Of a stretch of DNA of 64,000 nt, positions 12,540 to 64,000 are shown one piece after another. Every line of letters begins with the position of its first letter. Position 1 is the stretch's first letter. The stretch covers positions 15,624,001 through 15,688,000 of the forward strand of contig OZ024755.1 of assembly GCA_964016885.1 (NCBI GenBank). The letters run 5' to 3'. The notes beneath the pieces were generated by a model, which saw only the letters and a list, made by a program, of their open reading frames with translations, did not search any database and was not told the DNA's origin. The translations under genes and the position numbers were made by a program. This DNA is from Eledone cirrhosa. Taxonomy: Eukaryota.

Positions 12540-12789
12540 AGAAAAAAGAGAATCAGTGTTGCGACGAAAGGAATTTATTGGACATATTACAATTGTTTCT
12601 CGGGCGATCAGCTCGAGGCACGATCGATGTGGTGATCAAACCTGACTCTGAAATAGCGCGGTCCTTGGATACGTCTCGATTTCTACGAAACAGATAGGAA
12701 AATCTGTGATATCATACTCTGCTCTATGAGTGCATCGAGTACTCATACGGCCTATCGCATACGGACGCTTTAAGCATCCAACACCAATT
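12540..12789. mobile_element. Fold-back HHR element family C, copy 1 (Penelope-pLTR/retrozyme-like)
   Basis: Flanked by (TA)n. The minus-strand arm (~12540-12690) carries a degenerate HHR and the plus-strand tail contains GAGTACTCAT. Both parts are homologous to 42721-43027. Confidence 0.6.
12581..12675 (-). ncRNA. Degenerate type I hammerhead ribozyme with long stem II
   Basis: Minus strand: GACGUAU (stem I) - CCAAGGA (mutated CUGANGA) - ~60 nt stem II - GAAAC AAUU GUA - AUAUGUC (stem I'). Confidence 0.55.
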
Positions 12790-12893
12790 ATATATATATA
12801 TATTATGTATTTCCGTAGAAAAGGTAAAGGAAAGAAGAGTGCTCTATGTATAGAACAGAGTTATCTAATTATATAATAAACGACACAATATAA

Positions 12894-12963
12894 TTATTCC
12901 ATTACCTAAGGTTTCATGAAACTAGACAATTCTAACGTCCATTTCGCTCATCAGATGAAATAA
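12894..12963 (-). ncRNA. Type I hammerhead ribozyme, canonical core
   Basis: Minus strand: UUAUUUCAU - CUGAUGA - GCGAAAUGGAC...GUCUAGUUUCAU - GAAAC CUUAG GUA - AUGGAAUAA. Stem I has 9 bp and stem III (ACCUUAGGU) is near-palindromic. Confidence 0.78.
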
Positions 12964-12988
12964 ATAAATGTGTGTGTGCGCGTGCGTG

Positions 12989-13494
12989 TGTAAAAGAAAT
13001 CAAAGAACGCCTACATACTCATACAATGTTTATTCGCTGGCAATGTTTCATCCATACCGTGGGGCAGGAATCATCAGAGCTTTATAAAGAAAAATATAGT
13101 GCTAAGTATAAGCTCTACCAAGCTTAGTCACACGAACATTAGGTATACAGTACAGGATAATAAGAGAGATTGGAAATAGAAAGGATGGAGAGAATGCGTA
13201 ATGGGGTTGTTATTCAACATTACGGCTACATATGAAGATATAGGCAGATTTTCTCTCAAGAGACGGAGGCACGTGAGGGCACACAGAAACAAATACAGGA
13301 TTTAAAGATAGTTAAAAAATATAATAATAATAATAAAGTAAAAGAAAAATAATAATATAAAAAAGGGTAAATAAATAATTTTAAAATTAAAGCACAAAAG
13401 CAACAGAGGAAGTTATGCATTAGTCACTATATATAACAGGTGATTTAGTTTCCCCATGACTTGGAGTTATAGAAATACTACGAGACCCCTAAGA
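12989..13494 (-). mobile_element. HHR element family A, copy 1
   Basis: 12989-13380 aligns with 47500-47880 (AAAAGAAATCAAAGAACGCCTACATACTCATACAAT...). Abuts (TA)n at its right end. Confidence 0.75.
13030..13088 (-). ncRNA. Minimal type I hammerhead ribozyme, cleavage triplet mutated (GUC to GCC)
   Basis: Minus strand: GCU CUGAUGA UUCCUGCCCCACGGUAUGGAU GAAAC AUU GCC AGC. Confidence 0.7.
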
Positions 13495-16400
13495 TATATA
13501 TATATATATATATATATATATATATAAAATAAAGATTCAGCGAGAATCGCTTTCGGCGGGCAGGAAAAGCGAAGCGAAACGCAAAAATCAGGAATGATAC
13601 TAGCAAAGTGCTCAATAGTTAAAAACCAGAGCTAAACAATGTGTTAAGAAGCCATACAAAACTGAAAAGGTGGTCAAGAAGGCATTAACCACCCAAGCCA
13701 AAAACCAAATTAAGCTAAACAGGTCAAAACAAAATAAATGATAAAAAATAAATGATAACCAGACCTGATATAAATGATAAAAAATAAATGATAGCTATAT
13801 ATATATATATATATATATATATATATATATATATAATAAAACAGATTTTTATCCTGGAAACACGGTTTTATATAAACATGATATGAAGAGTGGTCAACAG
13901 TTTATTTTGTTAGTGTAATCATTTTCTATAATATGGTGTTACAGTAATATAACATAAGGACAACATATTGGTGATGATGCTCCCTTATATAACTCATAAC
14001 CTATGATAATACATTATATAACTGATAAGCTAAAATATTACATTGTGTAACATATAACCTATAATTGTAGTAGTTTAAATACGTCATGTTATTGCAACAT
14101 ATAACACAAGCGATTCTAGGGAAAGGCTTTTCTCTAGATAAATTGCAATGGAAAATAAATGGAATATTTGTATGGGAAAGGGATTTAGAGGTTTATATGC
14201 CTCAATACATTACATGGTTTATCAAGCGATGAGTAATGAGGTGGTTTGGGCTGATTCAAAATAAAGCAACGTTACAACCTACTATAGCTCGGTCAGAAAA
14301 TATATTAGTTCTTCGTCTTGTTCGCAGTTACATTAACCATACTCTGCAGTTTAGGCATATATAGCTGCATCAAATTCCAATATATTATCTGGTATTTGTA
14401 ACAGCATTGACTTCTCTGCATTACTCATTTTAACTACTTTAATCTCCCTACATAGTTTGATATGGTGGCAGTATTAACCTTCCTGCATTTGTGTTTGCAG
14501 ATGCATTAGTTTCTTTGATAATACGATTAATTTAGATTTATATATCTTTTCTTTATATATCATACAAACGTTCCTCATAATACGTGTTATCTTTTACATA
14601 TTTCAATAGAATCACTACATCTATCATTTAACACTTCTACTAAAATATTATTAATAAAAGCATTTATATCCGAGATTGACACAATCTCACCGAGCTTGGT
14701 GAGAATGAGCAATTGTTCAAACCTATCCTAGTATTTGACTGCTGTTAATTGTGACGCCTGCGAAACAATGAAAGAACATGAGAAAAACGTTAGAAACAAT
14801 ATACTCGTCAAATATGAATTTTCAATGCTACAGAGGTACGAGAATTGGCTGAAAAGTTCATAAGCTAACCAAGATACTCTCATGGAATAACCAAATGAGG
14901 TTTATTTTTCAACATAGTTTCTGGATAGAAACAATGCAGTTGTTAATGAAATTAGTGCACGCAAGTTTTGACGTGTCATTATAGGCAGCATAACCCTTCC
15001 GAAGTGTAATATATATATATATATATATATATACTTCTCTATATGTGTAATTTCGCGAGGATTTCTCTAGGCTGTGCGTATTTATATATATACACAGTGT
15101 GCCGTTGATTAGATAGATGGATAGAGATGTACTTTTGTGTAAACCAATGAGGACTAGAACACAGAAGTAAGAGGCAGATACTGTGAGATAAAATAGGTTG
15201 CACATTGTATGCAATTCTAATACCAACCAATCGCATCAGCGAAACTGTGACAGAGTTTCATTAATAAGAAAGACAGAGAACAGCACTGGTCTCAACACAG
15301 AAGGAAAGAGACAGAGAATAGTGAGTTGTGTCTAATGAAAAGGCATCAAACCGCAAAACTAATTACCAGTTTATTATACAAATGCTGCACGACTGATAAT
15401 AGCGGAAAATTGAGAGATATCCATTAATTTGGAAATTAAGATGGGATCTAGCTTTGCTGCCGGTGACTAGTGATATTACGTTTTAAATTAGATCAACTAA
15501 GAACTAATATGAGGTGGAGGATAAGACGACATAACAGGAATATGCAATAACCCATTCTAACGAATACAACTCACGTTGTTACTAACAAATACGTTGTTTT
15601 TTTTAATTCTGTATATCGTTTTTGTTTGTTTGCTTGTTTGCATATTTTACTTTTCTAATTTACAATTAAATAAAAATAAAAGGGGGTAAGGTTGTTAGTT
15701 TAACAGTTTGGTAAGCGCTGGTAAGAGGTTCGGAATTGATTCAATTACGTGTGTGAAATGAAAAGGATGGACAAGATTCGATTAGAGGTCCTTCTTCTTG
15801 GTTATGTTGTTTCCTATTCTATCTTTTAAGATAGAATAGAATAGAAAAATGGAGTCACTTTCTTTAATATCACCCCCCCCCCCCTCCCTCCCAGTTCACT
15901 GAAGGATACTATTTACTGCTGACAACGTTGTGGGAATGAAGATCAAAGCCCCGACTGGGAAAGTTTGAGCCATGTAATATGGGATATTAACCTTGCTTAA
16001 ATGTTTTACTCTTTACTTTGAGATCCTTTACCAGGGTCTCGGAGTTGGTGGAAAGGTGGGGTTGAGGAAAGTTGGTATCCTCAAACCGGAGGTCTGGACC
16101 AAATATTTTCGATAAAGTAGATGCCGCCATAAAGGAACAAAGGATGGTTTTAAAACGGGTGACAGTTTATGTCTACAAAACTACATGATAGACCGAGAGA
16201 ATTGAATCTAGAATGCAAAGAGCCAGAACAAGTGCCGTATGGAATCAAATCCAACGAGTGACAACTCCCTCATGTCACCACACCCGTCTGAAACGGCAAA
16301 ATTTGAACTCAGATCACTAACAAGAACAAATAACGCAAGATAATTTCTCCGATTACCAGATCTTTAGTATAATTTAGAACCCTTTATATGGAAAAAAGGG

Positions 16401-16534
16401 AAAGAAAGTTCGACGTGTCGGGCTTTAGCCCTTTTTCAGGAGTACAAAAATAGAGACAGAATCACCAAGAATATATATAAAGAGAGAGAGAGAGAGAGAG
16501 AAAGAGAGAGAGAGGGAGAAAGGGAGAGAGAGAA

Positions 16535-63017: not shown

Positions 63018-63126
63018 TATATTTATTAAAATAAATATTTGCTCTACGGTTCTTATATATTTGATATATATTTATCCTTATCGAGCCCTCTTTGGATTTT
63101 AGTCTTCAAATTTATTATTATTACTA
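63018..63126 (+). mobile_element. TA-embedded element family B tail with a 15-bp inverted stub
   Basis: Inverted ATATTTATTAAAATA followed by AATATTTGCTCTACGGTTC...TTTATTATTATTACTA. Confidence 0.82.
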
Positions 63127-63191
63127 TATATATATATATATATATATATACGATATTAAATAAATGGAAACTATATTTATAAAACCATATT

Positions 63192-63257
63192 TATTTCATT
63201 ATATATATTTCAGGGATATCATATTAAAAATATGTTATGCCTTCTTCAGACAAAATA
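63192..63257 (-). ncRNA. Type I hammerhead ribozyme, left arm
   Basis: Mirror copy of 63418-63483. Confidence 0.75.
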
Positions 63258-63417
63258 CAATATAAACAGTCTTATAAATAGATAGATTCGACATACCTTT
63301 CAACTTCGACTTCTATTTGAAAAGTTGATTTGGTAGTACTACCAAATCAACTTTTCAAATAGAAGTCGAAGTTGAAAGGTATGTCGAATCTATCTATTTA
63401 TAAGACTGTTTATATTG

Positions 63418-63483
63418 TATTTTGTCTGAAGAAGGCATAACATATTTTTAATATGATATCCCTGAAATATATATAATGAAATA
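63418..63483 (+). ncRNA. Type I hammerhead ribozyme, right arm
   Basis: UAUUUUGU CUGAAGA AGG...CCU GAAAU AUAU AUA AUGAAAUA. Stem I has 8 bp including G-U pairs, stem III is palindromic (AU)n, and the cleavage triplet is AUA. Confidence 0.75.
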
Positions 63484-64000
63484 AATATGGTTTTATAAAT
63501 ATAGTTTCCATTTATTTAATATCGTAAATATACTCCAAATACTTGTTGAGTGCTTTTATATCAGTTATAAATATTTACTCGTTGTTAACCCAACAATTTA
63601 AATAAAACTTTGCATATATATATATATGTATGTATATATATATATATAGGGGTAGAACACTGGAAGGTAATATCTGTAGTGGTAGAGCACTGAGTCCATG
63701 GGACGAGTTAGGTAGAACTGGTAACACGACAGTTAGTTCACCATAACGAGAACAGTTGTTTCACCTTAGCGGATCTGTAATGATTATTGCATAATAGCTC
63801 CACACTAAAGTACATATAATGCAATAAATACGATAATGTAACATCTAACTTAACATTTATTTCATATATGTGTGTGTCTGTGTGTGTGTATGTGTGACTG
63901 GAATAAGTAGAAGAATAAATAAATGAATATGAGGTAAACATGGGTAGAACAGGTGGTAACCACTGTTACAATGAGGGATGCTGATGATGCGGTTGGTTAA

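Follow-up and report, generated by a model that had tools for sequence, protein, structure and literature searches.

Fold-back insertions in (TA)n repeats of Eledone cirrhosa: probable truncated ends of Hydra-clade Penelope-like elements and a tandem retrozyme sharing their insertion signature

The 64,000-nucleotide stretch of the Eledone cirrhosa genome analysed here (the window; GenBank assembly GCA_964016885.1, contig OZ024755.1, positions 15,624,001 to 15,688,000) is 71% A+T, with (TA)n runs throughout, and between these runs sit insertions of seven families (A, B, C1, C2, D, E and F), plus an extra family, G. Several are fold-backs, in which one arm stops at a short 3′ end (S) and the oppositely oriented arm at a tail 3′ end (T), both named in hammerhead-sense orientation. 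What are these inserts, and why should the two arms of one insertion end differently? A sequence-only reading, which had placed its listed elements correctly, took them for a guild of non-autonomous hammerhead RNAs without open reading frames (ORFs) or, alternatively, for heavily truncated RNAs, in either case mobilised by Penelope-like elements (PLEs) and primed on both strands of the self-complementary target. Comparison with related copies makes it probable that the inserts are the truncated 3′ termini of five or more PLE families of the Hydra clade, joined by one ORF-less family, E, that is likely mobilised likewise, and that the fold-backs likely result from priming at S and T.

Coding frames and fixed ends of the insertion families

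The genome assembly searched with the window elements comprises 3.0 Gb; each of seven own-genome searches returned 942–2,688 first-look candidates, of which 40 were scored and 25–30 loci retrieved, and all family counts below describe samples of best-matching copies. The window copy of family F (63149–63613; S arm 63149–63337, minus strand, hammerhead core at 63249; T arm 63338–63613, plus strand, core at 63426) is a perfect palindrome, with arms 99–100% identical to the terminal repeats of a 3.86–3.90-kb element. These repeats recur at that interval (L181 and L182), and an unbroken frame of 750 codons lies between them in L182. The first window copy of family A (A1, 12989–13493, minus strand), a single 5′-truncated arm ending at S with its core at 13077 and a mutated cleavage triplet, is 78% identical to an ORF-bearing copy of ~5.6 kb (L194), made up, in this order, of a repeat, frames for a reverse transcriptase (RT) and an endonuclease, an extended non-coding part and the A end. 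Similarly, window copy B1 (32562–32717; tail-only T arm 32562–32662, minus strand; short S arm 32661–32717, plus strand) is 98–99% identical to L196, which together with L197 and L201 represents the ORF-bearing form of family B. Family D has ORF-bearing copies in L185 (~3.5 kb) and L187, and in family C1, loci L307, L310 and L311 have RT and endonuclease pieces located upstream of this arm. The frames of A, B, C1 and D are broken into pieces, which stand in the correct order with a C-terminal GIY-YIG domain after the RT, and the non-coding 3′ regions reach ~2.4 kb. Judged from these sequences, A, B, C1, D and F are the 5′-truncated ends of 3.5–5.6-kb elements with predicted RT and GIY-YIG frames. 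The proposed PLE link and the alternative of heavy truncation are borne out by these longer copies, whereas the headline of an ORF-less guild has to be given up; absence of an ORF holds for the window copies, where a search with the F protein gave no match, and for E.

The frames contain the motifs RWR, DKT, CxCx5C, CxxC and CxH, without CCHH, in an alignment read by eye. The set is complete in F and was found in the pieces recovered for A, B and D, and also for C1, with single residues lost in decayed copies. By these motifs, the frames of all five families fit the definition of the Hydra clade; the Neptune clade, considered first, was dropped, as the motifs match Hydra. In L182, L194 and L187, Asn-rich or low-complexity inserts separate the RT from the endonuclease domain, resembling those described for Adineta Penelope frames (PMC3846280).

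Family C1 had at first glance a different aspect, with both ends shared in 30 of 30 loci, an artefact that arose because the whole-element query selected such copies. A query with the S arm only gave variable junctions and an ORF upstream, and C1 as a fixed 250-nt monomer was rejected; exact head-to-tail junctions of C1 were not encountered. In four loci (L281, L287, L305 and L306), a 52-bp minisatellite has expanded within the non-coding 3′ region of C1. In family B, L196 and L197 lie on different contigs and share an identical internal deletion by which frame and 3′ end are fused; a deleted derivative may itself have been copied.

The ends of the inserts are highly regular. Among distinct arm ends in loci L001–L180, those lying within 12 nt of S or T number 34/35 in A, 57/57 in B, 32/33 in D and 61/63 in F, and (TA)3 follows within 14 nt of the end in 31/35, 46/57, 26/33 and 60/63, respectively (79–95%), compared with 14% of random positions in these loci and 23% in the window. 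In C1, (TA)3 follows 42 of 47 ends. The distance from the predicted cleavage site to S is 44–75 nt (26 nt in B), and the tail, from S to T, measures 80–142 nt, both near the ranges that the sequence-only reading had given; the two ends and the (TA)n flanks that it described likewise recur in the sampled copies. By contrast with these fixed 3′ ends, 5′ ends vary among copies. Both S and T sit at short TA-like motifs upstream of the ORF start and, because the tail continues into the ORF start region in tandem copies, they are internal positions of the RNA. The anatomy of PLE insertions is present: 5′ truncation, tandem terminal repeats, an inverted copy and a one-sided tail.

Fold-backs combine the two ends in a strict manner. 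Outward-pointing pairs in A, B, D, E and F are S+T in 52 of 58 cases (6/7 in E), the remainder being two SS, one TT and three with an unclassed end, and all 17 C1 pairs are S+T, giving 69 of 75 fold-backs over the six families. S and T each account for about half of the single ends, so that independent ends predict 50% S+T; the observed proportion among classed pairs is 69/72 (p = 3 × 10^−17 against 50%). In the window, this arrangement is seen in F and B1, in family D (40854–41425; S arm 40854 to ~41060, minus strand; T arm ~41068–41425, plus strand), in C2 (42706–43027; T arm 42706–42876, minus strand; S arm 42882–43027, plus strand, with a decayed hammerhead), in the second A copy, A2 (47497–48148; S arm 47497 to ~47880, minus strand, core at 47589; T arm 47933–48148, plus strand, core at 47961), and in C1 (12536–12789), where an S arm (12536 to ~12700; hammerhead on the minus strand, core decayed) faces a tail-only T arm (~12703–12789). 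The fold-back arrangement described earlier is thus confirmed for several copies, but A1, B2, B3 and B4 are single arms: B2 (38823–38914, minus strand) and B4 (63023–63124, plus strand) consist of the tail only, and B3 (47283–47474, plus strand) ends at T and retains the U4A hammerhead fold of its family in decayed form.

In 13 of the 69 S+T pairs, a count that omits two doubtful B pairs and includes C1 and E of the window, the T arm starts at, past or within ~10 nt of S. Neither arm of such a pair can have been copied from the other, and each must have been templated separately; these tail-only or nearly tail-only pairs favour two separate priming events over a single cDNA (complementary DNA) that snaps back on itself.

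Hammerhead cores and the tandem family E

The 11 or so hammerheads claimed for the window can all be recognized by eye as motifs, of which five are canonical and intact (two in A2, one in E and two in F), two have a core with C at position 4 (U4C, both arms of D, that on the plus strand at 41195) and four are decayed (A1, B3, C1 and C2); B1, B2 and B4 lack a whole hammerhead. Type-I descriptors, composed after the sequences had been inspected, recovered part of this set. A strict version gave one match (E; none in 40 shuffles), and a relaxed version gave four canonical matches and one position-4 variant, where shuffle means were 0.025 and 0.045 (n = 200) and no shuffle had more than one match. 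The Rfam scan of the window showed no hammerhead among the matches listed (150 of 267), only sub-threshold microRNA matches. Minimum free energy folding of the E hammerhead region did not reproduce the hammerhead fold exactly, as is expected with a short stem III.

Among family copies, 29/32 of A and 51/54 of F have a canonical first core box, and the E core reads CTGACGA in 88 of 88 unit matches (from overlapping loci); C2, unlike its decayed window copy, has a canonical core in most copies. Elsewhere the box is CCGA (U4C) in D, with the exact 7-mer in 28/31 copies, and in at least 19/31 copies of C1, and CAGA (U4A) in B, with the exact 7-mer in 32/43. Families B, C1 and D have a fixed non-canonical base at core position 4; in a viroid, U4C is known to lower activity in vitro (PMC3088659). 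In F, stem I is paired in 100% of 25 variants, three stem II pairs are altered on both sides and 96% of stem II cells are paired (0/500 shuffles as high), although two of five summary measures of covariation failed to beat shuffles. Stem covariation is supported in F, the family analysed for it. Separately, a short palindromic dispersed repeat at 40020–40155, with many copies in the retrieved loci, carries CTGATGA at 40108 and (TA)n at its end, but does not satisfy the hammerhead descriptors.

Family E is different in kind. Its 485-nt units are arranged head to tail, up to 12 of them in L198, and are 97–100% alike in a young subfamily; arrays are bounded by (TA)n, their outer ends are S or T, and the longest ATG frame is 46 amino acids. 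The window copy (43094–43663) consists of 1.08 units on the minus strand, ending at S (43094–43617), with a canonical core at 43241, and a tail-only T arm on the plus strand (43615–43663). With one type-I hammerhead per non-coding unit, E has the defining structure of a non-LTR (long terminal repeat) retrozyme. It is the only family shown to be ORF-less and, to judge from its ends, is likely mobilised by Hydra-type proteins. Its 5′ ends coincide with the predicted cleavage site in 14 pattern matches (13 true truncations), against five (four true) at a control site, a comparison weakened by a control motif that misses the older subfamily supplying many of the test matches, and by TA microhomology at both sites.

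Two further families lack a coding partner in our sample. The anatomy of C2 is the same as that of the ORF-linked families, and an ORF link sought in 25 loci was not found. Family G is represented by a single arm between C1 and A1 (12803–12960, minus strand; canonical core at 12954; terminating in (TA)n), and relatives of it at 12 further loci, including a fold-back in L276, were not traced to an ORF there. The description of the families as unrelated in sequence is nearly true: A and D have 60 nt in common at 75% identity, and what had been listed as one family C is two related ones, C1 and C2, 79% identical over 47 nt.

Origin of the fold-backs

From this anatomy, we infer that both strands of a nicked (TA)n likely prime reverse transcription, one at S and the other at T, in agreement with the priming on both target strands suggested earlier. 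The RT-endonuclease would be bound by a sense RNA that spans the terminal repeat, and the endonuclease would nick the self-complementary (TA)n on both strands. Reverse transcription would then start internally, at the short TA-like motifs of S and T, which lie downstream of the hammerhead site, and both cDNAs would extend 5′-ward over an uncleaved or re-ligated hammerhead, mostly halt early and be joined head to head via short overlaps. Long copying runs may yield tandem terminal repeats and full frames or, on E, arrays. With copying initiated downstream of the ribozyme, cleavage would sever the template, save where that template is re-ligated or multimeric; the weak cores of B, C1 and D fit this need to copy over an uncleaved hammerhead, as does the finding that cleavage is dispensable in vitro (PMC11167929).

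In the rival explanation closest to this scheme, one cDNA would prime itself to fold back, and the short end would be the cut by which the endonuclease resolves the intermediate. Self-priming (PMC3846280) and endonuclease resolution of the tail (PMC8557442) have both been proposed; window F is a perfect palindrome, the TA-like motif at S might be cut by the endonuclease, and a single cut would likewise leave one tail per insertion. It does not account for the 13 pairs with little or no arm overlap, among them E and C1 of the window, whose S arms contain sequence that the T arms lack, and RT starts map to both tail boundaries in vitro (PMC11167929); we regard it as unlikely. Much less probable still is that all families are ORF-less, non-autonomous hammerhead RNAs. 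The window copies without an ORF, the tandem ORF-less E, and C2 and G with no ORF traced all speak for it, but upstream of five of the seven families lie RT and endonuclease frames, and the extent of 5′ truncation varies. Long, near-perfect palindromes with TA flanks might also be miniature inverted-repeat DNA transposons or assembly artefacts; as the outer ends differ by a fixed tail, the inner junctions vary between copies, and the same sequence also occurs in single arms and tandems beside RT frames, this origin is the hardest of all to credit.

Several observations weigh against priming at S and T by Hydra-clade machinery. Most pairs have overlapping arms, which would need two RNAs or two passes and are also compatible with snap-back. 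The C2 pairs (n = 7) comprise one ST, one SS and five with an unclassed end, four of the latter ends lying 15–17 nt beyond the T mark, in a triplet run. The clade was assigned from motifs; Pfam returned no match to a family with the F frame and only a weak GIY-YIG match with D, and 36 homologues, at 31–38% identity, are mostly without names. Covariation in F was not above shuffles in the count of double-change pairs (404/500) or in further pair types (500/500), and the sequences are related. E showed no detectable similarity to nine ORF-bearing loci, which represent a minor share of the PLE families in the genome. Young copies are over-represented, because only the best-scoring 25–30 loci per search were sampled, and with respect to strict S+T pairing, the Anolis enzyme shows no strand difference in start site in vitro (PMC11167929).

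Priming at S and T nevertheless remains the probable origin. A stronger form of it, to which we give an even chance, is that Hydra integration is an obligate coupled priming at S and T on opposite (TA)n strands, as expected of a dimeric RT-endonuclease, that E parasitises this process and that three successful families have weakened cores because copying must pass an uncleaved hammerhead. If true, E would be direct structural evidence of PLE machinery inserting a tandem animal retrozyme.

Other window features and comparison with known systems

Inserts of different families adjoin on one (TA)n run at 42706–43663, 47283–48148 and 63023–63613 of the window, and in loci L014, L057 and L156; such clusters can be understood because every insertion leaves fresh targets. 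The window also contains a 6.2-kb (TA)n array with variant units at regular spacing (22287–28467) and a similar array at 1–1717. A dispersed repeat of ~180 bp, SINE-like (short interspersed nuclear element) by size and 75–92% alike between copies, is abundant (3431–3615, 8828–9006, 10253–10411, 11741–11912, 17430–17606, 29079–29248, 31303–31392 and 61552–61733) and common in the retrieved loci. A dispersed repeat of 190 bp is present in two direct copies (83%) at 33283–33470 and 33707–33892, and a fragment at 50403–51146, partially repeated at 35038–35377, resembles the end of a long interspersed nuclear element frame in L190.

The element class, its (TA)n target, the hammerhead and the tail are already in print, and the main identification is accordingly not new. 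The new detail lies in the S+T rule, the insertion signature of E and the position-4 core variants. Neither S+T pairing counts nor a catalogue of these families was found in the literature searched, although the supplements of the retrozyme preprint (bioRxiv 10.64898/2026.07.22.740005) and of the Octopus vulgaris repeat annotation (PMC13282606) may list them; Repbase and Dfam were outside its scope. A two-start model of PLE integration is testable here, given a family that is young and has an intact frame, a target that is simple and an S+T rule that is strong. The insertion scars of E tie a retrozyme to that mechanism, and the fixed position-4 variants offer a test of whether PLE hammerheads must cleave.

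The Hydra clade is described as (TA)n-targeting, hammerhead-bearing PLEs (Craig et al. 2021, PMC8557442), and Hydra-1_Obim from Octopus bimaculoides is listed with a (TA)n preference and a hammerhead (PMC8557442 supplement); its hammerhead, judged by eye only, is unlike all seven here. The Eledone elements share with that description the C-terminal GIY-YIG and the RWK-like, DKT, CxCx5C, CxxC and CxH motifs, as well as the hammerhead near the 3′ end, the (TA)n target, 5′ truncation, an inverted truncated copy and a tail that is often one-sided (PMC8557442). They are larger (3.5–5.6 kb, compared with generally <3 kb), have longer tails (80–142 nt, compared with 30–40 nt described for PLEs; PMC8557442) and, unlike the clade as described there, have U4C or U4A cores fixed in three families and at least five families co-existing.

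The closest mechanistic parallel is the Poseidon element PAc of Anolis, in which two RT starts delimit the tail in vitro (Frangieh et al. 2024, PMC11167929), and both target strands are cut and extended, with no start-site difference between strands. As in PAc, two internal starts downstream of the hammerhead would bound the tail here and both target strands would be used, but the PAc starts lie at an AC-rich stem-loop inside the ORF that lacks homology with the target, whereas those here lie before the ORF, at TA-like motifs. In PAc, hammerhead cleavage is moreover dispensable for insertion in vitro (PMC11167929). A tail on one of two inverted repeats is also described for Adineta Penelope insertions (PMC3846280), and minimal metazoan PLE hammerheads have the same tiny, often palindromic stem III and occur as opposite-strand pairs 100–700 bp apart (Cervera and de la Pena 2014, PMC4209133); the core variant described for them is U3-A8, whereas position 4 is affected here.

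Like metazoan non-LTR retrozymes, E consists of non-coding units in tandem, each with a single type-I hammerhead (PMC7229834; bioRxiv 10.64898/2026.07.22.740005), and such retrozymes have been proposed to be non-autonomous PLE derivatives (Cervera and de la Pena 2020, PMC7229834; Li et al. 2026, bioRxiv 10.64898/2026.07.22.740005). For published retrozymes, that link was drawn from co-occurrence and terminal-repeat homology (bioRxiv 10.64898/2026.07.22.740005), whereas for E it is drawn from the integration signature: S and T ends, fold-backs and (TA)n.

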